64,000 nucleotides of DNA from a virus (IMGVR_UViG_3300028888_000078:1-64000); one strand, 5' to 3'. Shown: positions 4,002 through 39,208, counted from the stretch's first letter. A program made the numbers and translations. Notes: a model not told the origin generated them from the letters alone.

Positions 4002-4430
4002 ATGAAAAAAGAGAAAAAGAGTAGAATAGATATATACGAAACTCCATATGAGGTATATCTAGCTATTGCAAATAAGTATACTACATTAGAAGAGCTTCAG
4101 GAAATATTTACATATACTGACGGATCAGAGCTCGATAATAGTATGCTTGAAGATAAATACGGATATAAGTTCCAAGGGGTTACTGTTTCTGTAAAACGTA
4201 AATCTGATAATAGACCTTTTATACTTGTAAAGTATATAGATGATACTTCTGTAAAAGTAGAAGATAAGCTATTAGATTTAATAAATCTTGCGGACCATGA
4301 AGCCTGTCATGTTATACTAGACCTATACAAGACAATTGGTCAAGATGTAGATTTAGAACAGCAAGAGGAATTTGCGTACCAAAAGGCTTATATTACAGGA
4401 CTAATCCTTAAAAATTGGATGAACAGATGA
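4002..4430 (+). CDS. Putative zincin-like metallopeptidase-domain protein
   Basis: HEACH (HExxH) followed by EEFAY. Confidence 0.6.
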   Translation: MKKEKKSRIDIYETPYEVYLAIANKYTTLEELQEIFTYTDGSELDNSMLEDKYGYKFQGVTVSVKRKSDNRPFILVKYIDDTSVKVEDKLLDLINLADHEACHVILDLYKTIGQDVDLEQQEEFAYQKAYITGLILKNWMNR

Positions 4431-9192: not shown

Positions 9193-9462
9193 ATGAGTAA
9201 AAAGCTAGTAACAAAAGATGAGAAAATCATCAAACAAGTTGAAAATGCTTTAGGTGATGTGCCACACGTCACATTCAAAGCTAGTGATGGAAATATCGTT
9301 CTTACTGTAACAAACAAAAACGGTGACGCTCTTAAGAAAATCGTTTCAGAAATCGATTTCTCTGGAAGAATTGGTGTATTACGTAGACATCCGGAATATA
9401 CTGTACCACGCGATCTCATGACAGATCTTGCAGAACGTTCGTATAAGTATACGATAAAGTAA
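9193..9462 (+). CDS. hypothetical protein
   Basis: ORF track; TTATCAAA leader. Confidence 0.75.
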   Translation: MSKKLVTKDEKIIKQVENALGDVPHVTFKASDGNIVLTVTNKNGDALKKIVSEIDFSGRIGVLRRHPEYTVPRDLMTDLAERSYKYTIK

Positions 9463-10258: not shown

Positions 10259-10750
10259 ATGAATATAACAATTAAAGCCTGCAATAATTCCCTTAGATTT
10301 ACGTCTTCGGTTTCTGTTGGCAAGGACTGGGAAGAGAGGTTTTTATCCAAAGAAAATCAAGCTAAAATTCTAGCGTGGTGTAAAGATCATCACGTGCGAG
10401 CATATTGGAACAGTGTTGATAAAAAATCCGAATTGATACAGGACTTAACCGAAGCAAATGTTACCAGTTTTGGACTGTTAAATAAACTGCATACAGAATT
10501 TATGCTGTTTGTCGGAGAGTTACCATCCAATAAGCACTGTTCAGAAAAGTCTGAAGTTTCAGAAAAGAACAAAAAATTTGTACACAAACTGTTGAACGAA
10601 TGGGATGAAACAGAAACTCGTATGGGTACAGCTGGTGCGATTATCATGGGGAAAGATTCTGAACATAAATTTGTGGCGCCGTGTGGACATATTAGTAGTC
10701 AGTTATTAAAACAATTGTTAGAAGCATGGCTACAGGTGTACGACAAGTGA
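10259..10750 (+). CDS. hypothetical protein
   Basis: ORF track. Confidence 0.75.
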   Translation: MNITIKACNNSLRFTSSVSVGKDWEERFLSKENQAKILAWCKDHHVRAYWNSVDKKSELIQDLTEANVTSFGLLNKLHTEFMLFVGELPSNKHCSEKSEVSEKNKKFVHKLLNEWDETETRMGTAGAIIMGKDSEHKFVAPCGHISSQLLKQLLEAWLQVYDK

Positions 10751-10959
10751 ATCAGCAACATCCACCTCTTCCCAAGAAGAAGCGTATAGATGCTAATGGC
10801 AACGATGCTAGACGATTATTTGTCAAAAGCGGAACTGCCACTCTGTTGCTAGCAAAGCTGCCATCTGAGAACGCAGCAAAGATAGCTCAAGCTGATATCT
10901 CTAGAGTTATTAAAAACCTCGGAGGTGAAGAACAATGTAATTTTCTGATCACGAAATGA
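10726..10959 (+). CDS. hypothetical protein
   Basis: ORF track; start uncertain. Confidence 0.6.
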   Translation: MATGVRQVNQQHPPLPKKKRIDANGNDARRLFVKSGTATLLLAKLPSENAAKIAQADISRVIKNLGGEEQCNFLITK

Positions 10960-11173: not shown

Positions 11174-11596
11174 ATGTCAAAACAAAAAGTAAAACCAGGA
11201 GATTTTGTACGCAGGTGTCTAACATCAGGAACACCTGTTGGTGCTGTATGTGTAATAGATGATGTAGAAGATGCGGGCATTTACGCGCATCATATTCCCG
11301 AAAACACGATTGGATCATTCTACATCAAACACGGCGAATATAGTAAGATGAACTCTGTCCGTCTTGCAATCTCTAACAATGACGCCAAATTCTTGGCAGA
11401 GAAACGTCCATATGCATTCAGACGTAGTGCCACAAAAACGTGGGAACGTGCATGTGGGAAACAAGACATTGTCGTTTTGGTAGCTCCAAACGGAACGAAA
11501 TTTGTGCTCAGAAACTGTATCATATGGAAACAGTATTCAGGACACGAAATAGCAATCCGTTGGGAGACAATGCTCAAGGCGTATGAAAACGCCTAA
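11174..11596 (+). CDS. hypothetical protein
   Basis: ORF track; TTATCAAAA leader. Confidence 0.75.
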   Translation: MSKQKVKPGDFVRRCLTSGTPVGAVCVIDDVEDAGIYAHHIPENTIGSFYIKHGEYSKMNSVRLAISNNDAKFLAEKRPYAFRRSATKTWERACGKQDIVVLVAPNGTKFVLRNCIIWKQYSGHEIAIRWETMLKAYENA

Positions 11597-11771
11597 ACCA
11601 GGACAGCTATGCACAATAAACAATACTGTCTACAGAGCAAGAAAACGTACAAACGGTTGTTATGGGTGTGCACTTAACAACATTATCATGTGTCCGAATG
11701 TAGTAGATTCACGTAATGGGCATCCTCTATTAGAATGCCCATTGAACGATATTATACTCGTGAGAGTATAA
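11583..11771 (+). CDS. small Cys-rich protein
   Basis: CYGC...C...C pattern; overlaps the upstream gene. Confidence 0.65.
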   Translation: MKTPKPGQLCTINNTVYRARKRTNGCYGCALNNIIMCPNVVDSRNGHPLLECPLNDIILVRV

Positions 11772-15024: not shown

Positions 15025-15373
15025 GTAGAGTTCGAGCCTTGAGCCAATGCTCTACACCAAAAAGAAAGCAGACTACAGTATTTTTTGAAACCTCGCCAAG
15101 TAGGAGTAAAGCTTAAAAATATTTACAAATCTACAGTGCGATAAAAAAAGACACTCGCAATCTTACAACAGTAGAATAAACTACACATAATCCGAGCCTT
15201 GAGCCAGTATTATGGGATGATACCACCGTCCACACGGTGTAATAATATGTGGGCATTAGATCAAAAATCACGAATTGTAGCGAGCCTTGAGCCTGCTATT
15301 GCACTGCAATGATTTCAAGAATGCAGAATACGTCCTATTGAGAGCCTTGAGCCAGTGATAGACCAACGTATTC
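15025..15373 (+). repeat. Array of four stem-loops each displaying GAGCCTTGAGCC
   Basis: Exact 12-mer at 15034, 15194, 15282 and 15342, each flanked by a different complementary stem. Confidence 0.9.
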
Positions 15374-15487: not shown

Positions 15488-15584
15488 GAACGTTTTGACC
15501 GATCATCATGACGTTCTGCAACAAGAATCTTAGCGTGTCCTAGAATAAGCTGTTGGACGAGGGGTTCGAGTCCCTCCAGGTCCA
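15488..15584 (+). ncRNA. ssrA: Permuted tmRNA, acceptor piece (3' half of the tRNA-like domain)
   Basis: GCTGTT-GGAC-GAGGGGTTCGAGTCCCTC-CAGGTCC-A; pairs with the downstream GGGCCTG including G3.U70; 5' boundary uncertain. Confidence 0.8.
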
Positions 15585-15781
15585 CTACATATTAGGATTT
15601 ACAGGTCAAAGAGAAGACGGATAATTGTGTAAATAATAGAGGTTTAATAGCTCTACAATACAAAACAAGGTTAAATAGCAAGTAACACCGTAAATGCGAA
15701 ATGGTTAGAGAGTAATCTCGGTAAGCCTTAAATATGGTAAGGTACCTTTGAGTGAAGAACACGATCCTAATATTTTTATAC

Positions 15782-15925
15782 GGGCCTGACTGGATTTGAC
15801 AGCAGTGGAAAGTAAGACATTAAGCGCTTTGATATAAATCTAAACGGCGATTATAATATCGTTGACTACACGGGCCTCAAGGAGGCAGCGTGAAGTCGGT
15901 GCGTACTACCTAAACGCGAACGTTT
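15782..15925 (+). ncRNA. ssrA: Permuted tmRNA, coding piece; predicted tag (A)GDYNIVDYTGLKEAA
   Basis: GGGCCTGACTGGATTTGACAGC tmRNA-type 5' end; tag ORF 15846-15893 ends in Ala-Ala-stop; 3' boundary uncertain. Confidence 0.82.
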
Positions 15926-15948: not shown

Positions 15949-16021
15949 GAGTGAGTTAACTCAACTGGTAAGAGTTCAGATGCTGTCTGAAGACGTGGGT
16001 TCGACTCCCACACTCACTCCA
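15949..16021 (+). tRNA. Atypical tRNA or tRNA-like RNA, anticodon undetermined
   Basis: Good acceptor, D and T arms; anticodon arm TCAGA-TGCTG-TCTGA has a 5-nt loop (or GCU if the register shifts). Confidence 0.6.
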
Positions 16022-29361: not shown

Positions 29362-29559
29362 ATAAGAAATACGCTACCAGAGTTAATAGAATAGAGCTGT
29401 CACGGCTGCTCACCTGATATAAAGTGAGTAACAAATGTGTAAAGACTTATTTATTTAAGACTATTCAGTGATATTAACGTTAGGATGGTTCTTTGTAAAT
29501 GAAACAAAGAGGAGTTCGATTCTCCGGCGTATACAATTAATCTTTAGAACCTTTGAGTC

Positions 29560-31446
29560 ATGATTATACGCAATGCTACAGTCGTTACATACGACATAGA
29601 AGTATTTCCCAACTGCTTCCATTGCGTTTGTAAGAACACAGAGACTAATGAATTATATAAGTTTGAAATTAGTGAAAGAGTCAACCAGCTAAAACAGCTG
29701 GTTGATTTCTTTTACTATGACACCAAAGACAAAATGTTCTGCGGATATAACAATCATCACTACGATGATGTTATTATAAACTATATAATAGATATGTTTT
29801 ATAAAATGGATCAACTTCCGTTTTGGAGAATATGTCTGTCTTTGTTTAACCTTTCACAAACTATTGTGAATGCAGAAGATGGGAATGTTGATAGGTTTAA
29901 GAAATGGAAGTATGCACATTATTTTCAATCTATGGACTTATTGACAATGATGTTCAGTCAAAAGCTACGAGTTGGTCTTAAAAGTATGCAGGTAACAATG
30001 CATTATCGTAATGTCTATGAATACGAAGGAAATTTCGAAGAGCCTATACCAGTAGACAAAATAGACAATATGATTGACTATAATATCAATGATGTAGAAT
30101 CAACCACAGAGTTATTAAACCGGTTGAAGAAAGACATAGAACTCAGACTCTTCATACAAGAAGAACACGGAATCGATTGTTTATCAATGGATTCTGTTAA
30201 GATGGCAGAAACCTTCTTGCTGGAGAAATACTCCGAAAGATCAGGTATTCCTAAAAATGTAATAAAGGAAATGCGTTCTCCAATGGATTATATTCCGTTG
30301 AAGGATGTTATAATGCCGTTTATATCATACAAAAATCCAAAGTTACAAAGCGTCTTAGAAGACATGAAGAAACAGGTAGTGTATTCTAAGGAGCGAAAAG
30401 GCTACGAGAAGAAGTTCGTTCTCTCGAATGTGGTATATTCTATTGGTGTTGGAGGTATTCATACTATTCATACACCAAAAATATTCCTCCCAAAAGATGA
30501 TGAGTTTATAGGGCACGCAGATGTGGCGTCAATGTACCCTAGCTTACTGATTGAACATCAATTAGGACCTCGTCATTTGGGAAAACTATTTTGCGATCTA
30601 TTTGCCGGATTGAAAACCGAAAGGTTAGAAGCAAAACGTACAGGTCAGACTATAAAGAATATGTTTCTGAAGATTGTGCTCAATTCTCCTACTGGTAAAA
30701 TGCAGCAGGAAGTAAGTTGGATGTACGATCCTTTCAATGTCTTTAAAATACGAATTAATGGTCAGTTAATACTTCTTTTACTCGTAGACAGGCTTTTAGC
30801 ACTCGGATGTGAAATTATTCAGTGCAACACAGATGGAGTCGTCTACAGGGCTAAAAAGGGCCTTAAACAGGCTATTTCAGACGCTATTGCCGAAGTTGAA
30901 AAACTTACGCGTCTAGAATTCGAGACTGATGAGTACGAAGCATTCTATCAATATGCTATCAATGACTACTTTGGTGTCAAGAGAGGATATTATGAATCGA
31001 AAGATTTTGAGCTGATAGAGCGAAAAGGTATGTTTATTACTGAAACAAAGTTAGGCAAAGGACTTTCGCCTGTGGTTATTCCAAAGGCTGTGATAAACTA
31101 CTTCGTTACAGGAGAATCTATTGAATCGTTTATTAAAAACGATAGAGATATACGAGATTTTCTTATGTCTCAAGCCGTTGATAAGAAGTTTGAAGTGTAT
31201 CATGGAGAACAGAAGATACAACGAATTAACAGATTCTATGCAAGTACAGATGGAAAATATTTATTTAAGTATGATCCAGAAGATACAAGAGAAAAAGCAA
31301 ATATGCTAACAAAATCAGGAGTAACGATCCTGAATAAATTTGATGATCGACCGATAGAAGATCGAAAGATTAACTATCGTTACTATATCAGTGAAGCAAA
31401 GAAAATAGTTGCAGACTTCACTGAACAGCAACTAGAGTTATTTTAG
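29560..31446 (+). CDS. polB: Family B DNA polymerase with 3'-5' exonuclease
   Basis: YDIE (ExoI), DVASMYPS, KIVLNSPTGK and NTDG motifs; C-terminal QLELF. Confidence 0.93.
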   Translation: MIIRNATVVTYDIEVFPNCFHCVCKNTETNELYKFEISERVNQLKQLVDFFYYDTKDKMFCGYNNHHYDDVIINYIIDMFYKMDQLPFWRICLSLFNLSQTIVNAEDGNVDRFKKWKYAHYFQSMDLLTMMFSQKLRVGLKSMQVTMHYRNVYEYEGNFEEPIPVDKIDNMIDYNINDVESTTELLNRLKKDIELRLFIQEEHGIDCLSMDSVKMAETFLLEKYSERSGIPKNVIKEMRSPMDYIPLKDVIMPFISYKNPKLQSVLEDMKKQVVYSKERKGYEKKFVLSNVVYSIGVGGIHTIHTPKIFLPKDDEFIGHADVASMYPSLLIEHQLGPRHLGKLFCDLFAGLKTERLEAKRTGQTIKNMFLKIVLNSPTGKMQQEVSWMYDPFNVFKIRINGQLILLLLVDRLLALGCEIIQCNTDGVVYRAKKGLKQAISDAIAEVEKLTRLEFETDEYEAFYQYAINDYFGVKRGYYESKDFELIERKGMFITETKLGKGLSPVVIPKAVINYFVTGESIESFIKNDRDIRDFLMSQAVDKKFEVYHGEQKIQRINRFYASTDGKYLFKYDPEDTREKANMLTKSGVTILNKFDDRPIEDRKINYRYYISEAKKIVADFTEQQLELF

Positions 31447-31479
31447 TAACCAACTTGAGAACCAAAGAGTCAGTAAGCT

Positions 31480-32043
31480 ATGATTATTGAAGTAAACACA
31501 AAACTCTTGGATGAATTTCCAGAGTTAAACTCAAGTCAGTTAATTTTCCTAAGTGTGATATTGGATAAGAATCAACCAAAATATCAAGACGTCCGCAAAG
31601 TTGTCAGCCTTATTAACGACGAAGATATATCACACTTAATTTCTCAAGAACTAGTAACCACGATAGAGAGCGGTGAGTCAATTACATATCAAGCTACAGA
31701 TAAGCTTAAGCAAGCTGTAGCTAACGAGAAGGATTATTTTGATCTATTCTATGATATGTACCCAGTGTATGTAATGCGTACAGATGGCAGTAAATGCTAT
31801 TTGCGAGCTAATGTAAACAAATGTCGTCATTTCTTTAACACTAAATGTGGAAGAAGTTCAGCTATGGCAGAACATATAATCAAATGTCTCGATTATGAGA
31901 TATCCAAGCGAATGCGCGAAGGAAGTTTGAGTTATATGATGACTATGTGGAATTGGTTAACGCGTTCACAATGGGAAGCGATTGAGGAAGAAATGCAAGA
32001 TACAGCAAAAACTGTAAATTCTTATGGAACAGAACTTATCTAA
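31480..32043 (+). CDS. Putative replication protein (initiator or loader-like; function uncertain)
   Basis: Between polymerase and helicase; FDLFYDMYP motif as in phage replisome-organizer-type proteins. Confidence 0.55.
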   Translation: MIIEVNTKLLDEFPELNSSQLIFLSVILDKNQPKYQDVRKVVSLINDEDISHLISQELVTTIESGESITYQATDKLKQAVANEKDYFDLFYDMYPVYVMRTDGSKCYLRANVNKCRHFFNTKCGRSSAMAEHIIKCLDYEISKRMREGSLSYMMTMWNWLTRSQWEAIEEEMQDTAKTVNSYGTELI

Positions 32044-32965
32044 TGTCATAAGACCTATACGAGTTGTAGCACAAGAGGCTATAAACTATATTGAAGGACG
32101 TAGAAGTCACGATATTCAGTCTTTAAAGACGAGATGGAGTAAGTTTAATAAGCAGTGTATGGGAGGTATTGAACCAAATACCGTTTATACCATAGCTGGC
32201 ATATCAGGAAGTGGAAAGTCGTCGTTTGTAAATTCTATGACTTTCGATTTAATTGACTTGAATCCAACTGAAGACATAATTATTCTAAACTTCTCACTAG
32301 AGATGGTTGGATTTAGGCAAGTCGGAAGAGCTCTTTCAAATAAGCTGAGAAAGACTACTTCTGCCTTGTATAGTTCGGAAACGGACCTAGATGATGAGAC
32401 CTTCAGAAAAGTCATCAGTGTTTCCAACAAGCTAAAGGAGTATCCTGTCTATTTTGTAGATAATCCATGTACTCCTATGCAGGTAGAACAAATTATATAT
32501 GCTTTCTATAACCAGTATGTAAAAGGTACTGGGAAACATTTTGTAATCACGTACGATCACGCATTATTAACAAAACAAGTTGGAAGTGTAATTGAGACAA
32601 CGAGTGAACTAGAAAGGGTGTTCATACAAGCAAAGAAACTCCCTCTTACTACAGTCATTCAGATTGCACAAATGAATAGAAACATAGAGTCTTCAGAACG
32701 TATCAACAATCCGTTGAGTCACTATCCTATGAGAAGTGACATATCGTCATCAGATGCAATTTTTCAAGCGAGCGACTATGTTCTCGTTATGCACAGACCT
32801 GAAATATTGAATATACAAGAGTATGGACCGAATCATCTGCCTACACAGAATAAGATCTATATGCATATGTTAAAGAATAGAGACGCAGGAAAGCCCTGCA
32901 TACTTGAGTTCGAGAATGACTTGATGTATAACAATATAAAGGAAAGTACAGCAGCTGGTGACTAA
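32024..32965 (+). CDS. DnaB-like SF4 replicative helicase
   Basis: GISGSGKS Walker A, FSLEM, YDH, AQMNR, KNRD motifs. Confidence 0.92.
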   Translation: MEQNLSNVIRPIRVVAQEAINYIEGRRSHDIQSLKTRWSKFNKQCMGGIEPNTVYTIAGISGSGKSSFVNSMTFDLIDLNPTEDIIILNFSLEMVGFRQVGRALSNKLRKTTSALYSSETDLDDETFRKVISVSNKLKEYPVYFVDNPCTPMQVEQIIYAFYNQYVKGTGKHFVITYDHALLTKQVGSVIETTSELERVFIQAKKLPLTTVIQIAQMNRNIESSERINNPLSHYPMRSDISSSDAIFQASDYVLVMHRPEILNIQEYGPNHLPTQNKIYMHMLKNRDAGKPCILEFENDLMYNNIKESTAAGD

Positions 32966-32991
32966 TATTAACGTTAAAATACAGGCTGAAT

Positions 32992-33477
32992 ATGATAAAG
33001 ACTTACAAGTTTACGACTAAGAAGAACAATACTACTACGTTTATTCCTTTTAATAATATTAGTTATGAGCCCAACTATTCTGAGATTATCGATAATATTA
33101 TTCTTTCTGATATAAAGAAGAAGAACAGTTATCTGTTTAATATCGATGACTCTGATAGTACAACGTATATTCCTCTTAGCAGCAGCTATCTGAAGGCTGA
33201 TGACAAGTTCATCAAGGCTGCAAACTTCCTTGCCAACTATAAGAAGAACAAGAAGATCTATAAGACTATTCCTTATATACTTGGCAAGATGTACACGCTT
33301 AGTGATGGTACTCCGATCGTGTTCTACGACGATGAGATTCAGATTGGTTTCGATACCTATAAGTATTCTGATTTCTCGAATTTGTCGTTCCTGAACGGTA
33401 TTACCGATAATACGAAGAAGATTATTATTAATATCTACACTACTGGTGCAGCTAATATTAACATTAATCTACTTTAA
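32992..33477 (+). CDS. hypothetical protein
   Basis: ORF track. Confidence 0.75.
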   Translation: MIKTYKFTTKKNNTTTFIPFNNISYEPNYSEIIDNIILSDIKKKNSYLFNIDDSDSTTYIPLSSSYLKADDKFIKAANFLANYKKNKKIYKTIPYILGKMYTLSDGTPIVFYDDEIQIGFDTYKYSDFSNLSFLNGITDNTKKIIINIYTTGAANININLL

Positions 33478-33494
33478 TAAAAACAATAGAACCT

Positions 33495-34241
33495 ATGAGT
33501 CTAACATTACCTACATCAAAGATTCCAGCAATCTCTACTAATCCTCAATATCTCGTATTGTACGGCTTGCCTAAAGCGGGTAAGACGAGTGCTCTTGCAC
33601 AACTTGACAATAACTTGATTATAGATCTTGAGGGTGGATCTCAGTTCATTGATGCTATGGCTGTACAAGCTAGAACTATCAATGATTTGGGAGAGATTGC
33701 TCAAGCCATTAGAGCTAAGAATGCTGAAGTAGGGCATAATTTCTATAAACACATTACAATAGATAATGCAACACGTCTTGAAGATATTTGTATGTCTTAT
33801 GCTTGCACCCTTTACAGAAAGACCGAATTGGGCAAAAACTGGAAAGGAGACGACGTTACTACGCTCGCTCGTGGAGCAGGTTACAAGTATTTAAGAGATG
33901 CCGTCAAGAAGGTAATTGATATGTTCAAGGACCTTTGTGACGAATTCATTCTAGTTGGTCATGTCAAAGATAGTCTCACCGATAAAGACGGGCAAGAAGT
34001 CAACGCAAAAGAGATCGACCTCGTCGGAAAACTTGGAAAAATCGTTTGCGGAATGGCTGATGCAGTCGGATACGTTTACAGAAAAGACAATGAAACTCAC
34101 ATTAGCTTCAAGTCTGGAGGAGACGGGACTATTATGGAAGCTCGTGCCAGACACATTGCAGGTAAAGATGTTGTTATCGCCACTGGAAATGAAGACGGAA
34201 GTATAACAACCTATTGGGATCGTATTTATAAGCCCGAATAA
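33495..34241 (+). CDS. Sak4-like/AAA_24 ATPase (ssDNA annealing)
   Basis: YGLPKAGKTS, IIDLEGG, ITIDN, LVGH motifs; adjacent to an SSB-like gene. Confidence 0.8.
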   Translation: MSLTLPTSKIPAISTNPQYLVLYGLPKAGKTSALAQLDNNLIIDLEGGSQFIDAMAVQARTINDLGEIAQAIRAKNAEVGHNFYKHITIDNATRLEDICMSYACTLYRKTELGKNWKGDDVTTLARGAGYKYLRDAVKKVIDMFKDLCDEFILVGHVKDSLTDKDGQEVNAKEIDLVGKLGKIVCGMADAVGYVYRKDNETHISFKSGGDGTIMEARARHIAGKDVVIATGNEDGSITTYWDRIYKPE

Positions 34242-34279
34242 TTCAGAATCGAAGAATCAGTAATTAAAAGGAAGAAATT

Positions 34280-34897
34280 ATGTATAGTACAAAAACAGCA
34301 ACAACAAATAATAGCGAATTTACAAGTTCGTATATGCCTGTAGGCATCAATGAGAATATCACTCTGAAAGAAGTAAATGTTAATAAATCACCTCAAGGTC
34401 TTGACTTCCTGGAAATTGTATTTCAGAATAGTGAAGGTCAGACAGTAACTATGACTGAGTGGAAGAATACTAAGAATATGTGGATTAAGACCGACGAGGA
34501 TTTGCAGCGTCGTGATAATCAGCAGTTTGGTCGTATTCTGCAAGTTATAGATGCAGTTAAGGGTAGTCATGGAGATTTTGAAGGTGCTTCGTTTATTGAA
34601 ATGATTACTTGGGCTAAGGCATGTCTTGCTGGTGACAGTAAGAATGTACGTCTTAAGGTGATTTACGATAAGAAGGGTTATACCACTGTCTCGAAGAATG
34701 GTATATTCATTGAGTCTATGGATGTTGCAAAAGAAGAGTCTCAGATTAAGCTTTGGAAGAATGATCTTCTGGAGCGCCCTGTACAGGCTGATGTCGAAAA
34801 GCCTGTTGATCCGCTTGTTGCAGCTGCAAATGAAGCAATTGCACTCAACACTCCGGTGACTGCAGACTCTACAGGTGCTGACGACCTGCCATTTTGA
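34280..34897 (+). CDS. Putative single-stranded DNA-binding protein
   Basis: C-terminal ADDLPF acidic tip; follows the Sak4-like gene. Confidence 0.72.
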   Translation: MYSTKTATTNNSEFTSSYMPVGINENITLKEVNVNKSPQGLDFLEIVFQNSEGQTVTMTEWKNTKNMWIKTDEDLQRRDNQQFGRILQVIDAVKGSHGDFEGASFIEMITWAKACLAGDSKNVRLKVIYDKKGYTTVSKNGIFIESMDVAKEESQIKLWKNDLLERPVQADVEKPVDPLVAAANEAIALNTPVTADSTGADDLPF

Positions 34898-35018
34898 TGT
34901 AATTAAAATAAACGTAGGAAAAAATACGTATTACTGGCATCGAGAAGAATGGGAAAAGGAACGAAAATGGTTTAAAGAACAAGAAGAAAGGTTTTTTAAA
35001 CGTGTTTTCCACTTTTAA

Positions 35019-35410
35019 TGGTTAGTGGTGCTGACAACCAAAAGTAAGAAACATCATGGTGTGAACCATGTGCTGTTTGTCAAAAACATGTGTGCTGGTT
35101 CAAGGCCAGCCTGTTTCATTGAAACTGTTGTATTCAGATGGAAAGAATACTTTCTTACGTAATGGTCAGTGGTGTTTGCGACCAGTCTTTCTAATAAATA
35201 AAACAGTTCAAGTAAAGTTCGCAGAGGGACGCTGCTTAGAAAGATAAATGGTCAATGGTGCTGACAACCATGATACACAGTCTTTGTTCCCGAAACCAAA
35301 GTCAAAAGCAATGGAGTGAACACAAAGGTACGTGAAAATCGTGAAAGGATCTCTCACTGGGAGATCCGGATTGCTGTGAAAGCTAAAAGGTCAGTGGTGG
35401 AGGTTGACTT
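35019..35410 (+). repeat. Four stem-loops with conserved loop ARTGGTG
   Basis: Copies at 35019, 35163, 35249 and 35388; TGGTT/AACCA versus TGGTC/GACCA covariation. Confidence 0.8.
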
Positions 35411-35505
35411 CTAGTCAACCCGATTCATATAGATTCGAGGAGAGTGGGTTGAGGAAAGGATGTTAGCCACATAAGTGGGAAAGCTAACGTGTAGAATCTA
35501 TATAT

Positions 35506-35621
35506 GGGTGGTTCAGTAAGAGGATTGCGCAAAGCCTTTAAACAGAACGAGAGAGTCGTCTACCTTTAGTAATTAAAGGAGGAGCTTATCGGCAACGCGG
35601 GTTCGAATCCCGCACTACCCA
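35506..35621 (+). ncRNA. tRNA-like element (acceptor stem plus T-arm, non-canonical interior)
   Basis: GGGTGGT/ACTACCC and GCGGG-TTCGAAT-CCCGC; 116 nt. Confidence 0.65.
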
Positions 35622-35645
35622 CAAATACAAAAGAGCTTATAAGCC

Positions 35646-36620
35646 ATGTATAGTACAAAAACAGCAATTACAATGAGTCTTAGAGACTTATTGGACAAAC
35701 TGGATGACTATACTATCTATTCTTACTATCTTGGTAGTTTTAAGCCAAAAGTCTTAATGAATAGTCCATTGAGACCAGACGATAAAATCCCCAGCTTTGC
35801 AATATTTCCAAGCAAAACCGGGGACTTGTTGTTTAAGGATCATGGTACTGGAGAAGCAGGTAATGCTCTCAAGTTTGTTAAGCTAATAAAAGGCTTAAAT
35901 ACCCGCGAAGAACTCGAGCGTGAGCTCTTAAAAATAGTTCGGTGGGTAAACCCTAACCAAGGTACCAAAAAGCCAGTCAGAATGGCTGAAAATGTGTCTG
36001 AGACGGACATTGGGATAGTAAGACAGCCATTTACAGAAGTAGATAAACAATATTGGAAACAATTTCATATATCTATTGATACATTGAAAAAATTCAATGT
36101 TTTTAGCATTAAATACTTTCTTTGTAATAGAGTCGTCAGAGGAACCTACAAAGAAGATAGTCCTATGTATGCATATAAGGTTTATGATCGATTTAAGATT
36201 TATAGACCTTTAGCCTCCAAGTATACTAAATGGCGTACCAATCTGACAAATCGGTATGTTCAGGGGCTAGCCGAGTTGCCACAGGAGGGTGGTAATCTCC
36301 TCATCATAACAAAATCCTTAAAGGATGTGATGTGTCTTTATGAGATGGGATTTAATGCTATAGCTGCTTCTAGTGAGACTACATTTATTCCTGAGGATAT
36401 ATTGCAGTCTTTACGAAGTAAATGGAAACATATTGTTATACTGTATGATAGAGATGTTGCAGGAATGCAGAATGCTCGTAAGTATAGTAGACAGTATAAG
36501 TTTGATGCTATATTCGTCCATAAGAAGTTTAAAGCGAAGGACGTGTCTGACGCTGTTAAGTTAAACGGGTTCTTCGTTGTAAAGGATTGGTTAACTAAAA
36601 CAGTAGAAAGATATGACTGA
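35646..36620 (+). CDS. DNA primase (TOPRIM)
   Basis: SPLRPDDKIPSF...FKDHG N-terminal domain; IITKSLKDVM and LYDRDVAG TOPRIM motifs. Confidence 0.88.
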   Translation: MYSTKTAITMSLRDLLDKLDDYTIYSYYLGSFKPKVLMNSPLRPDDKIPSFAIFPSKTGDLLFKDHGTGEAGNALKFVKLIKGLNTREELERELLKIVRWVNPNQGTKKPVRMAENVSETDIGIVRQPFTEVDKQYWKQFHISIDTLKKFNVFSIKYFLCNRVVRGTYKEDSPMYAYKVYDRFKIYRPLASKYTKWRTNLTNRYVQGLAELPQEGGNLLIITKSLKDVMCLYEMGFNAIAASSETTFIPEDILQSLRSKWKHIVILYDRDVAGMQNARKYSRQYKFDAIFVHKKFKAKDVSDAVKLNGFFVVKDWLTKTVERYD

Positions 36621-36792
36621 TTTTATAGGTTGTTTATATGGTTCCATAATAGGAACATTGATCGGTTTATGTGGTAGCATACTCTATGCTAACTACATGT
36701 TTAACTCTTGGAAGAGTAAAATATATAAACTGATTGAGGATGCTAATACTTTTAAGATAACACTTAAAAATGAAGTCTTCAGGGAGGGTTAA
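36613..36792 (+). CDS. small membrane protein (59 aa)
   Basis: Manual translation MTDFIGCLYGSIIGTLIGLCGSILYANY...; fills the gap between primase and the next gene. Confidence 0.55.
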   Translation: MTDFIGCLYGSIIGTLIGLCGSILYANYMFNSWKSKIYKLIEDANTFKITLKNEVFREG

Positions 36793-37159
36793 AAATGCGA
36801 CGAAGGTCGATGCGTATGGGCTACATTTCCGTAGCAAACTCGAACTCTATACGTATGAAGCTTTTATGAAAGCAGGAATACCTGTTAAGTATGAGCCAAA
36901 GCATTTTGTCCTCCTACCAAAGTTCGAATTCCTTGGAGAGAAAATACGTCCTATCACATATCTCCCTGATTTCATCGGGAGAGGTTTTGTGGTAGAATGC
37001 AAAGGTCTTATGGGAGATTCTTTCCCTTTAAGATTTAAACTCTTCAAATATTACCTCAAGAAACATAGATCTAAGATGAAGTGCTATTTAGTACGAAATC
37101 ATAAGCAGGTCGATGAAATGATTGAGGACATTATTAAGAACCAAAAGAGTCAAAAATAA
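36770..37159 (+). CDS. PD-(D/E)XK endonuclease (DUF1064/T7 endonuclease I-like, possible resolvase)
   Basis: FRSKLE...YLPDF...VECKG motif. Confidence 0.82.
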   Translation: MKSSGRVKNATKVDAYGLHFRSKLELYTYEAFMKAGIPVKYEPKHFVLLPKFEFLGEKIRPITYLPDFIGRGFVVECKGLMGDSFPLRFKLFKYYLKKHRSKMKCYLVRNHKQVDEMIEDIIKNQKSQK

Positions 37160-37950
37160 TGGAACAGAACAAAACATTTCTGAAAGTAGGAGAAAAAGTA
37201 GTATTCAAGCCTAAGACAGAAGGTCTTGATTATACATTGGAAGCCGGTAAGGTGTATACGGTAGAAATAGATCGTTATACTGACGAAATAACATTTAACG
37301 TAGCACCGAATATAACGCTTCCAGAAAAGCTTTACACTACTACTGAAGATGATAAGTTTGTCAACAAAATCATAAATCATTACAACAATTCTAAAGAAGG
37401 AATAACAGGTGTGATGTTGTCTGGTCTTAAGGGTAGTGGTAAAACGATTATGATGAAACGTTTAGCTTTGGAATCTAATCTTCCTATTCTTTTGATAGAT
37501 AAGAGTTTCTATCCTCGACATCTTATTACTTTGTTTAATAAGTTAGTAGATACACCTATCTGCATACTTATGGACGAGGTTGATAAGTTAGGAGATGATT
37601 ATTCTGATGATTATCTGTTGAAGGTACTTGACGGTATTAACTCGTCTGGTAAGAAGCTAATGGTCTTCACATGTAATGATGATGAAGATATTAGTGAATA
37701 TCTGAAGGACCGTTGTTCTCGTATTCGATATTGGAAAGATTACGGAGAGATGCCTGCATCTATGATACAGGCTGTGCTTGAAGATAAGTTGGATGATAAG
37801 ACTGAAATTAAGCCCTTGACTGACTTTATTCAGGAGAAATTTGAATGTGCTAGTTTTGATAACATTGCTTCATTTGCTGATGAGGTAAATGCTTGTCCTA
37901 ACGATACATATGAAGATTTGTTCAACGATATGAATTTGTCTAGCAAATGA
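37159..37950 (+). CDS. AAA+ ATPase
   Basis: GLKGSGKT, ILMDEVDK, FTCN, DRCSR motifs. Confidence 0.88.
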   Translation: MEQNKTFLKVGEKVVFKPKTEGLDYTLEAGKVYTVEIDRYTDEITFNVAPNITLPEKLYTTTEDDKFVNKIINHYNNSKEGITGVMLSGLKGSGKTIMMKRLALESNLPILLIDKSFYPRHLITLFNKLVDTPICILMDEVDKLGDDYSDDYLLKVLDGINSSGKKLMVFTCNDDEDISEYLKDRCSRIRYWKDYGEMPASMIQAVLEDKLDDKTEIKPLTDFIQEKFECASFDNIASFADEVNACPNDTYEDLFNDMNLSSK

Positions 37951-38189: not shown

Positions 38190-39208
38190 TGGACACATCA
38201 ATCCCCTATTACTCAGATGTCTCGCGCATCAGTAATTCGAACATAGGCTGGTTTCTGCAGAAGGGACCAGCCTTTTTACATAAGATGCTTACTGATCCTC
38301 CACCAGAGGAAAAGAATAGTATCTTAGAACGTGGGACTATGATCCACATGTTCATTCTCCAGCCCGAAGAGTTCCAAAAGACATACGTAGTCTGGGACAA
38401 AAGTAGACCTTCTTCAGCACAGCAGGAGAAGTTCTGTCAGGAGCTGGCTAATACGTTAGAAATAGAGCCAAATAGAGCCATTCTAAGCGCATATCAGGCT
38501 GCCTATAGTATAAAAGGTAAGTCTGAAGAAACAATGCTGTCAGAAGGCATTAAAATAGCCTCTACGTTGAAGGATTACATAGACTTCCTGAAAGCAAATG
38601 ATGGAAGAACTATGATAACTCCTTGGGATGCTAAAATGCTTGAGAAAATTAAGCAAAACATCGAATCTCACAAACTTGCAAATATGATAATTAATCCATG
38701 TTTTGAATACAAAGATAAAACTTTATATTTAAATTATGTAAAAAATTATCATGAATTCCATATAAACTGGGAATTTCAAGTAAAGATGAGTGGTGGGTAT
38801 GTACATTGTAAATCATTACTTGATGGTCTTACTCTTGATTTTAAGAATAAGAAAGCTATCATATATGACTTAAAGACTACACAAAAGCTGTGGCACTTTG
38901 AGGATAGTATAAAGCAGTATGATTATTGCAGACAGTTAATGTATTACACAATGGCTGTACAATGGTATTTAAAGAATGAATGTAATGAATCTTTAAAAGA
39001 TTGGTCTTTTGAATGGTATATTATTGGAATTGATACAACAGGTTCCAATGAAATACGTACATTTAAATTTACAGAAGATCAAATATATTCTCATTCTGAT
39101 ACTATAGAATACGCAATACGAGATATATGGTGGCACCAAACTACTGGTAAGTGGGATCATAGTAGAGAATATTATGAAGGCGATGGTTCCGAGTCTTTGA
39201 ACCTGTAA
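38186..39208 (+). CDS. PD-(D/E)XK exonuclease (RecE/ExoVIII-like)
   Basis: ISNS, GTMIH, CKSLLD, YDLKTT, YCRQLMYY motifs. Confidence 0.85.
   Translation: MMDTSIPYYSDVSRISNSNIGWFLQKGPAFLHKMLTDPPPEEKNSILERGTMIHMFILQPEEFQKTYVVWDKSRPSSAQQEKFCQELANTLEIEPNRAILSAYQAAYSIKGKSEETMLSEGIKIASTLKDYIDFLKANDGRTMITPWDAKMLEKIKQNIESHKLANMIINPCFEYKDKTLYLNYVKNYHEFHINWEFQVKMSGGYVHCKSLLDGLTLDFKNKKAIIYDLKTTQKLWHFEDSIKQYDYCRQLMYYTMAVQWYLKNECNESLKDWSFEWYIIGIDTTGSNEIRTFKFTEDQIYSHSDTIEYAIRDIWWHQTTGKWDHSREYYEGDGSESLNL

Follow-up and report, generated by a model that had tools for sequence, protein, structure and literature searches.

Why do several replication genes of one phage begin beside the same short sequence? The question is raised by a stretch of 64,000 nucleotides of viral DNA (IMGVR_UViG_3300028888_000078:1-64000), referred to here as the window, which is the start of a 103,414-bp genome of a crAss-like phage. 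Its closest named relatives are the Oafivirinae (Suoliviridae, Crassvirales) cr272_1, cr7_1, cr124_1, Bohxovirus, and cr131_1. A preliminary description of the window had noticed operator-like hairpins of the form GAACC-W3-4-GAGUC at the start codons of replication genes and had proposed a translational regulon of the replisome under one RNA-binding protein. I performed a bioinformatic analysis of this element in the window and in related phages. It was found that the element is a covarying mini-helix conserved in many relatives, and that it may be a translational operator.

A short element at the starts of replication genes

The six sequences quoted in the preliminary description are all where it had placed them. 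The strict pattern GAACC-N3-4-GAGTC has four exact matches, all on the plus strand, at the starts of the PolB gene, the gene at 31480, the Sak4-like gene, and the ATPase gene; the mean in 100 dinucleotide shuffles was 0.11, and none of the shuffles reached four. When the pairing rule given below was added to the pattern, there were 16 matches on the plus strand between 4 and 40 kb, compared with 1.2 in shuffles. Six of the 16 lie between -35 and +21 of a start codon, against a background of 6.5% (binomial P = 3.5e-4). The 16 best window matches of a covariance model made from the relatives are likewise all on the plus strand, between 15 and 39 kb.

Seven starts bear the element between -34 and +21, in each case on the plus strand. 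GAACC-TTT-GAGTC (29547..29559; R1 model, 29.7 bits, E 1.5e-5) abuts the ATG of the PolB gene (29560-31446, plus strand), as does the PolB element of about 45 distinct relatives, with a variable spacer. GAACC-AAA-GAGTC (31459..31471; 26.5 bits) lies 8 nt 5′ of the ATG at 31480, the start of a gene for a 187-aa protein, and is kept 3-8 nt 5′ of the orthologous ATG with a free spacer. GAACC-TAT-GAGTC (33489..33501) spans the Sak4-like ATG at 33495, where relatives have GAACTATAAGTC or GUAUC-AUU-GUAUC. GAACC-AAAA-GAGTC, with a 4-nt spacer (37138..37151; 20.1 bits), lies 7 nt 5′ of the ATPase ATG at 37159 and inside the 3′ end of the preceding open reading frame (ORF); the relatives have GAACT-N4-AAGTC at this site. 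The copies before the SSB-like gene and the primase gene, described earlier as degenerate, turned out to be true variants of the element. The former, GAATC-GAA-GAATC (34246..34258; 24.3 bits, E 5e-4), whose inner AT/AT dinucleotides pair, lies 21 nt 5′ of the ATG at 34280 (SSB-like, 205 aa) and is kept 13-21 nt upstream in relatives. The latter, GAGCTTATAAGCC (35633..35645; 15.5 bits), has an extended helix GCUU/AAGC and abuts the primase ATG at 35646; GAGCTTATAAGCC or AAGCTTAAGCTT stands immediately 5′ of the ATG in about 35 relatives.

The seventh start belongs to the gene for an ECF-type sigma factor (ATG 20015), which has GAATC-CTA-GAATC at +9 to +21 (20023..20035). This 13-mer is identical in the relatives G001, G002, and G004 even though the codons upstream differ. 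In cr7_1 the site reads GUAUC-AGC-GUAUC by an Arg codon swap from AGA to CGT that keeps R-I-T, and other relatives, which lack the sigma element, encode the same N-P-R-I-T peptide with other codons. A further match with swapped half-sites, GAGTC-TTT-GAACC (39191..39203, plus strand; 18.2 bits), lies at the end of the exonuclease gene. In relatives, GAGTCATTGAACC is found 1 nt 5′ of the ATG of the ORF after the exonuclease gene; such an ORF start is not evident in the window.

The element-to-ATG distance peaks at 0-9 nt. The PolB and primase elements abut the ATG despite intergenic regions of 198 nt and 398 nt, and at the ATPase and sigma genes it falls within coding sequence. The starts in the 60-kb late block on the minus strand gave no elements. 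Of the regulon proposed earlier, the single sense-strand element shared by the starts of replication genes is supported; its range is wider than the replisome, for it also occurs in the sigma gene and in the leader of gene 25248.

A separate observation concerns two of these genes. The first 22 nucleotides of the SSB-like gene (34280-34301) and the primase gene (35646-35667) are identical (ATGTATAGTACAAAAACAGCAA, MYSTKTA), and this start is nearly invariant across relatives in both families. It holds a UGUA-UAG-UACA mini-hairpin that takes in the UG of the AUG.

The element is a covarying mini-helix

What is conserved in the element? The apparent direct repeat has the form G1-A2-x3-y4-C5-N(2-5)-G9-A10-y′11-x′12-C13, in which xy is complementary to y′x′. 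Nine Watson-Crick combinations of the inner dinucleotides were found: AC/GT, GT/AC, GC/GC, AT/AT, CC/GG, TA/TA, GA/TC, AA/TT, and CT/AG. Pairing was assessed in 92 distinct instances picked solely by the pattern GAnnC-nnn-GAnnC at starts, leaders, and arrays. In this sample 98.2% of the cells pair, and double-sided changes number 58 cells, compared with 14.7 in shuffles (0 of 500 shuffles match); pairing drops to 8-36% when the partner is slid 1-3 columns. On the plus strand, 135 of 276 cases have Watson-Crick pairs at both inner positions, as do 60 of 64 near starts, versus 7 of 118 on the opposite strand, which is the chance level.

The helix has some freedom. With a 3-nt spacer, C5 and G9 can also pair, and A10 is then bulged. 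In a common variant C5 is replaced by U and G9 is lost, while a 3-bp helix is kept (GA-ACU-AUA-AGU-C; GAACUAUAAGUC). In the primase version the helix is extended (GAGCUUAUAAGCC, or AAGCUUAAGCUU). Each strand of the mini-helix is flanked by 5′-GA and 3′-C, and the element thus has a two-fold pseudo-symmetry.

This internal helix of 2-3 bp is the real structure, and it had been missed in the preliminary description, which drew hairpins around the start codons. The stems named there (TAATC/GATTA, CATTATT/AATAATG, and ATACA/TGTAT) are present in the sequence but are no commoner than in shuffled flanks. Outer stems of at least 5 bp were found at 29% of start-codon sites versus 24% in shuffled flanks, and the local folds (z from -1.3 to +0.6) have no greater stability than those of shuffles. 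The flanking hairpins at start codons were thus rejected.

Is the element read as RNA or as DNA? The elements follow gene orientation, occupy initiation regions, and lie in an RNA-gene cluster. Since the helix sequence is free while complementarity is kept, a folded single strand is indicated rather than a double-stranded operator. Outer stems are lengthened by allowing G.U more often than by allowing A.C (28 versus 17), and the conserved fourth hairpin of the array described below has three or four G.U pairs. A hairpin on the antisense strand, in which A2.C13 and C5.A10 become G.U, was considered and then dropped, because the phages with U at positions 2 and 10 (GU-type, below) would give G.A. 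I infer from these patterns that the element acts as RNA.

A multi-hairpin RNA and a leader carry the same element

The preliminary description had suggested an array at 15.0-15.4 kb as a competitor for the start sites. This array does carry the same core. It is a non-coding run of four hairpins on the plus strand (15025..15373; hairpins 15025-15055, 15186-15214, 15277-15299, and 15326-15373), each of which shows GAGCC-TT-GAGCC in its loop (15034, 15194, 15282, and 15342). Homologous arrays of three or four hairpins, with unrelated stems that still pair, were found in every related genome inspected, always 11-14 kb upstream of the PolB gene and directly 5′ of a permuted (two-piece) transfer-messenger RNA (tmRNA). 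In the window the permuted tmRNA lies at 15536..15893 on the plus strand (Rfam RF04321, 40.9 bits, E 1.5e-5), although its score falls short of the gathering threshold, 47. RF04321 scores 70.6 bits in L095 and 49.4 bits in L097 at the orthologous position, and a tmRNA is annotated there in cr7_1. It is followed by a tRNA-Ser at 15950.

The leader of gene 25248 (25118..25167, plus strand) has a hairpin P1 formed by CGTTC (25118-25122) and GAACG (25140-25144), with the element GAGCC-TTT-GAGCC (25126-25138) in its loop, about 110 nt upstream of the gene. The P1 stems covary in relatives (CGTTC/GAACG, CATCC/GGATG, CGTCC/GGACG, CGCTC/GAGCG, and TCCAC/GTGGA). Outer stems of at least 5 bp are present in 72% of array copies versus 31% of controls and in 76% of leader copies versus 16% of controls; they differ between copies and between phages and still pair. 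An alternative 10-bp helix joins 25127-25136 with 25158-25167. A universal pseudoknot of the leader was rejected, as it exceeds chance only in lineages with a TTT or TTG spacer and in L065.

Next to the leader, a conserved hairpin CTTATC...GATAAG lies around CGTTAGTT..AATAACG at 25185-25250. It covaries strongly, with compensatory changes, and sequesters -5 to -12 of gene 25248. Even MT835473, a distant phage that has no mini-helix system, retains this hairpin. On the other side, about 2.2 kb (22924-25110) have no convincing ORF, and a box within this region (GCTTCCCATTAGCACAGCAAC in relatives) is conserved 5′ of the leader.

Conservation and a concerted switch

Is the element common in related phages? 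Conservation was assessed in 80 loci retrieved by PolB similarity (58-97% identity). The element is present at the orthologous starts with its spacer and helix sequence free, and its conservation extends to more than 50 related Oafivirinae phages. At a minimum, the system is found in Buhlduvirus, Burzaovirus, Bohxovirus, Cacepaovirus, and the lineage of the window. It is absent in the more distant phage MT835473 (46% PolB identity). The set of sites is labile; one clade has lost the PolB, g31480, Sak4, and SSB sites and has kept the array, and the sigma site is found in some genomes only. The element and its conservation are thereby firmly established.

Positions 2 and 10 are A/A in most genomes (GA-type) and U/U in certain genomes (GU-type). 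All seven sites of cr7_1 and cr124_1 (four in the array, sigma, leader, and Sak4) read GUAUC-NNN-GUAUC. L078 has GUAUC-UUA-GUAUC abutting the PolB ATG, and the array of G007 has GUGCC-UU-GUGCC. When all 16 letter combinations at the two positions were counted near starts, A/A (133) and U/U were found, and mixed forms were essentially absent. The spacer behaves in the same manner; G008 and G009 have spacers of 4-5 nt in the array (GAGCC-UAUUA-GAGCC) and at start sites alike. Thus, the concerted switch from A to U and the matched spacer lengths suggest one co-evolving, trans-acting reader. Of the earlier claim that one RNA-binding protein controls the regulon, the common trans-acting reader is strongly implied by this pattern; the protein itself was not recognised.

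Search for the reader

The preliminary description had likened the proposed protein to T4 RegA. No RegA-like or other recognisable RNA-binding protein was found. A six-frame search of the 103-kb genome gave no match at E<=1 to the RegA family (PF01818). There was likewise no match at E<=1 to the CsrA family (PF02599), and no match to RegB (PF10715) or to the splicing endonucleases of the EndA type (PF01974).

Several candidates were considered. Gene 25248, g32992, g10726, and g11583 seemed absent in some genomes in presence/absence profiling, but positional orthologues exist, and this approach was discarded. When similarity was compared by type, the g4002 family alone proved closest between the two GU-type phages G007 and cr7_1 (37% versus 25-32%); its product is an acidic HExxH protein, and it was not retained. 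The product of gene 25248 is fast-evolving and has a beta domain and a long helix; its relatives are found only in crAss-like phages, its PDB matches are coiled coils only, and a language-model atlas gave nothing. Two small basic proteins, of 77 aa (10726-10959) and 62 aa, are conserved wherever the system occurs. The 62-aa protein (11583-11771) has four invariant cysteines (C-x2-C ... C ... C) and is kept in GA-type and GU-type phages, including cr7_1 gp64. Its structure model has a pLDDT of 59, and no PDB relative (profile search), PHROG relative, or family assignment was obtained.

Two other kinds of reading were rejected. Complementarity of the half-sites to the T-arm of an upstream tRNA does not hold, since the T-loops vary freely. 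An ECF-sigma promoter with GAACC as the -35 box has the wrong spacing, and covariation is against it.

What does the element do?

The reading preferred here is that the element is an operator for a putative trans-acting, probably dimeric, RNA-binding factor that controls translation initiation. I would give it a probability of roughly one half. The element would be a cis-acting RNA on sense transcripts, in which the half-sites 5′-G-A-x-y-C-3′ fold back together; the inner dinucleotides would form the helix of 2-3 bp and present the invariant G, A, and C with two-fold pseudo-symmetry, a geometry that would suit a homodimeric reader. One trans-acting factor, probably a phage protein, would read every occurrence. 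Since the PolB, g31480, Sak4-like, SSB-like, primase, ATPase, and sigma elements lie inside the region that the 30S ribosomal subunit has to occupy (-34 to +21), binding of the reader would control translation initiation. Occlusion, the mode of T4 RegA, gp43, and gp32, would be the simplest control. Gene 25248 has the element in a hairpin loop of its leader, where, in this phage, it would compete with the 10-bp alternative helix. With its four copies well presented, the four-hairpin RNA beside the tmRNA could hold the reader in store, buffer it, or titrate it. The reader is probably a protein, and translation is suggested as the controlled step only by the position of the elements. Binding of the reader may either repress or activate.

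A more specific form of this reading is tentative and, in my estimate, rather doubtful. It would have a phage-encoded homodimeric regulator of an unrecognised family, whose specificity has been re-tuned (from GA to GU, and from spacers of 2-3 nt to 4-5 nt), make the translation of the whole replisome, of the late sigma factor, and of a conserved early operon depend on the level of a four-hairpin sponge RNA made together with the tmRNA.

Several points weigh against the operator reading. No RNA-binding domain was found in about 50 early and middle proteins with Pfam and PHROGs, and a comparison of the presence, absence, and similarity of proteins among relatives gave no clean candidate. Most intergenic regions are short, which in part forces the element close to the ATG. 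A helix of 2-3 bp is unstable by itself, and the test of G.U against A.C favours the sense strand only moderately. Finally, G006 and G007 retain the array without any start-site elements. Thus, the array must have a function of its own, and the competitor role is weakened for the same reason; a decoy role of the array is plausible as a guess.

The main rival is that the elements are recognised by a site-specific endoribonuclease, probably dimeric, that cuts polycistronic precursors and those containing tRNA or tmRNA. Instead of ribosome occlusion, the mRNAs would undergo processing or decay and would so be matured or inactivated. Dimeric nucleases would suit the two-fold pseudo-symmetry, and the concerted switch from GA to GU fits any protein reader. 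The PolB and primase elements come within about 15-25 nt after tRNA or tRNA-like sequences, and the array is always 5′ of the permuted tmRNA, which itself needs processing. However, this rival is weakened because most sites (g31480, Sak4, SSB-like, ATPase, and sigma) are not beside tRNA genes. Processing would need neither exact abutment to the ATG nor placement in coding sequence near starts, and no homologue of RegB or of the splicing endonuclease is present. I regard it as unlikely.

The tRNA-like pieces mentioned here consist of a T-arm and a 3′ acceptor strand and lie at 29480-29533 and 35590-35625, just 5′ of the PolB and primase elements. ARAGORN and Rfam made no call on either. L017 has a true tRNA-Leu at the position of such a piece.

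Could the element work as DNA? It might be a small hairpin in single-stranded DNA that serves in priming or replication or as an N4-like hairpin promoter of the virion RNA polymerase; alternatively, a DNA-binding regulator of middle genes might use it as an operator. Watson-Crick covariation does not separate RNA from single-stranded DNA, and the strand bias could track the direction of replication. In keeping with such a signal, the virion RNA polymerase of a crAss-like phage transcribes only single-stranded templates in vitro, and its early promoters have no known motif; this study, of phage phi14:2, reports host-type middle promoters and no motif for early transcripts (bioRxiv 10.1101/2020.03.07.982082). 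On the other hand, double-stranded operators do not evolve by free sequence with complementarity kept, and 2-3 bp are too few for a stem to extrude from duplex DNA. A promoter must precede the ATG that it serves, whereas the element lies at +9 of the sigma gene and over the ATG of the Sak4 gene. The antisense strand fails in GU-type phages (A.C becomes G.A), G.U pairs favour the sense strand, and starts in the 60-kb late block on the minus strand are without elements. A role in DNA thus appears improbable.

The element might instead be an intrinsic initiation signal without a dedicated reader, namely a standby or start-selection structure for the ribosomes of Bacteroidota, which initiate independently of Shine-Dalgarno pairing, or a structure read by a host factor. 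Its location in the initiation region fits, as does the PolB context, in which GAGUC-AUG stands without the A-rich leader (TTATCAAAATG) found at many genes of the same block. However, the four copies in a non-coding RNA and the copy about 110 nt upstream of gene 25248 would be left unexplained, and a genome-wide switch from GA to GU within one subfamily needs a co-evolving partner, most likely encoded by the phage. Moreover, close relatives translate the same genes without the element. This possibility seems quite improbable, a little more so than the last.

That the elements are mere gene-boundary sequences spread by recombination or duplication, like the T4-type PeSL module-shuffling sites, with no regulatory role, is very improbable; their place is indeed at gene boundaries, Burzaovirus relatives have undergone an exchange of PolB, and site membership is labile, but compensatory changes, a free helix, invariant flanks, and a concerted switch are signs of selection on a structure that is read, not of homology tracts.

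Comparison with known systems

Does the element belong to a known class? In T4, a single factor, RegA, acts on many early mRNAs, notably those for replication; its sites overlap their start codons, and it occludes the 30S subunit. Here too the element covers the initiation regions of several replication mRNAs (seven starts). In contrast, this phage has no PF01818 protein, RegA sites are unstructured and AU-rich whereas the present element has invariant G, A, and C residues about a mini-helix that covaries, and RegA has no multi-site non-coding RNA partner. Such a partner is a feature of CsrA/RsmA with CsrB/RsmZ, in which one short motif is found both where mRNAs initiate translation and in the loops of a non-coding RNA with several hairpins, and in which a homodimer reads two sites, as proposed for the reader here. 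The array is likewise a non-coding RNA with several hairpin-displayed copies of the start-site motif (four hairpins, 15025-15373). Unlike the Csr system, the present one has no PF02599 protein, no GGA core, and no Shine-Dalgarno sequence; the core is G-[A/U]-xy-C, twice, the half-sites pair together, and the array persists where start sites are absent.

The other likenesses are more limited. The coat operator of single-stranded RNA phages (MS2, Qbeta, PP7) is a small hairpin with a bulged A and a loop of 3-4 nt at the replicase start codon, where a coat-protein dimer binds and represses translation. The likeness, which includes the bulged A10 of the form with a 3-nt spacer, is one of form only, for the virus type is unrelated, the helix is 7-8 bp versus 2-3 bp here, and here there are many sites per genome; no coat-like reader is known, although no search aimed at one was made. 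In T4 gp43 and gp32 the operator is likewise a structured RNA that directly precedes the start of a gene for a family B DNA polymerase or an SSB, and the leader helix of gene 25248 resembles the pseudoknot of T4 gene 32; those are self-read operators of single genes, while here one element occurs at ten or more sites including a non-coding array. In phage Mu, the small zinc-finger protein Com binds an RNA hairpin by the mom start codon, and a basic 62-aa protein with four cysteines is present here. Com, however, activates one gene by melting structure, and nothing ties the 62-aa protein to the element.

Some classes do not match. N4-type hairpin promoters have a 5-7 bp stem and a 3-nt loop on the template strand upstream of an early transcription start; here the helix has 2-3 bp, the strand favoured by the G.U pairs is the sense strand, and the sites lie at or after the ATG. 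The bulge-helix-bulge has two 3-nt bulges around a 4-bp helix, versus 2-3 bp with single flanking mismatches here. The element has no GGAG, the target of T4 RegB. No Rfam family matches the element; the only Rfam matches are to tRNA, the group I intron, and the permuted tmRNA. RAGATH-22 (RF03098) was rejected, as its best match is elsewhere (E 3.1), and RAGATH-20 (RF03048) gave no match. A literature search found nothing that links crAss-like phages to translational repressors or start-codon stem-loops.

Other features of the locus

Genes lie on the plus strand between about 4 and 40 kb and on the minus strand after that. The identities of the PolB, Sak4-like, DnaB-like helicase, primase, and ATPase genes hold. 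The replication module contains PolB, the conserved 187-aa protein, the DnaB-like helicase, the Sak4-like ATPase, the SSB-like gene, and the primase, together with a DUF1064/resolvase-like protein, the ATPase, and the exonuclease. The gene for the 187-aa protein (31480-32043), 3′ of the PolB gene, is highly conserved, with C115, H132, and C136 invariant. Since it immediately precedes the DnaB-like helicase gene, its product may be a helicase loader or a replisome organiser.

Two boxes recur between the genes. The leader box (A/T)TTATCAAA(A) lies immediately 5′ of the ATG in many plus-strand genes (before the ATGs at 9193, 10087, 11174, 13147, 14324, 21046, 22456, 27433, and 27834, plus strand), and these starts form a start-region class distinct from the genes with the mini-hairpin. 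The ATATTAAC(N)TTAA box is found at about 25090, 27800, 29470, 32960, and 33450, once directly 5′ of the tRNA-like sequence before the PolB gene; in relatives it immediately precedes the PolB element. This box may be part of a promoter.

On the minus strand, a group I intron (437-684; Rfam, 72.5 bits) and a tRNA with anticodon CUA (1614-1688) were found. The ORFs of the minus-strand block (40-103 kb) are broken up under table 11, which fits TAG reassignment in the late genes. The first plus-strand gene (4002-4430) encodes a small acidic protein that evolves fast among relatives; its conserved HExxH motif suggests a metallopeptidase. The early region of relatives has a match to RAGATH-15 (188.8 bits, just under the gathering score of 199.5), one to RAGATH-12 (106.7 bits, over the gathering score), and weaker, sub-threshold matches to hammerhead and twister-P1 ribozymes (L095:5549-5837, L095:6388-6466, L098:1317-1375, and L097:2070-2142).

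Significance

The crAss-like phages are the most abundant viruses of the human gut, and Shine-Dalgarno pairing is not used in Bacteroidota. Almost nothing has been described of gene regulation in crAss-like phages apart from the virion RNA polymerase and the host-type middle promoters. Here, the replisome genes, the sigma gene, a conserved leader with structure, and a non-coding RNA next to the tmRNA of the phage are tied together by a single short RNA element. This pattern points to a circuit of post-transcriptional control that has not been described before. The mechanism suggested by these features is a phage translational-operator regulon with a multi-site RNA. The 13-nt element or the 350-nt array is a defined bait for a new RNA-binding protein, and the natural specificity variants (GA, GU, and long spacer) are built-in controls. 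The element can also serve to mark true start codons when these genomes are annotated, and it is a route into translation control in Bacteroidota. Should the specific form of the operator reading be true, it would add the first virus to the Csr-like sponge circuits, and also the first host lineage in which Shine-Dalgarno pairing is not relied on.

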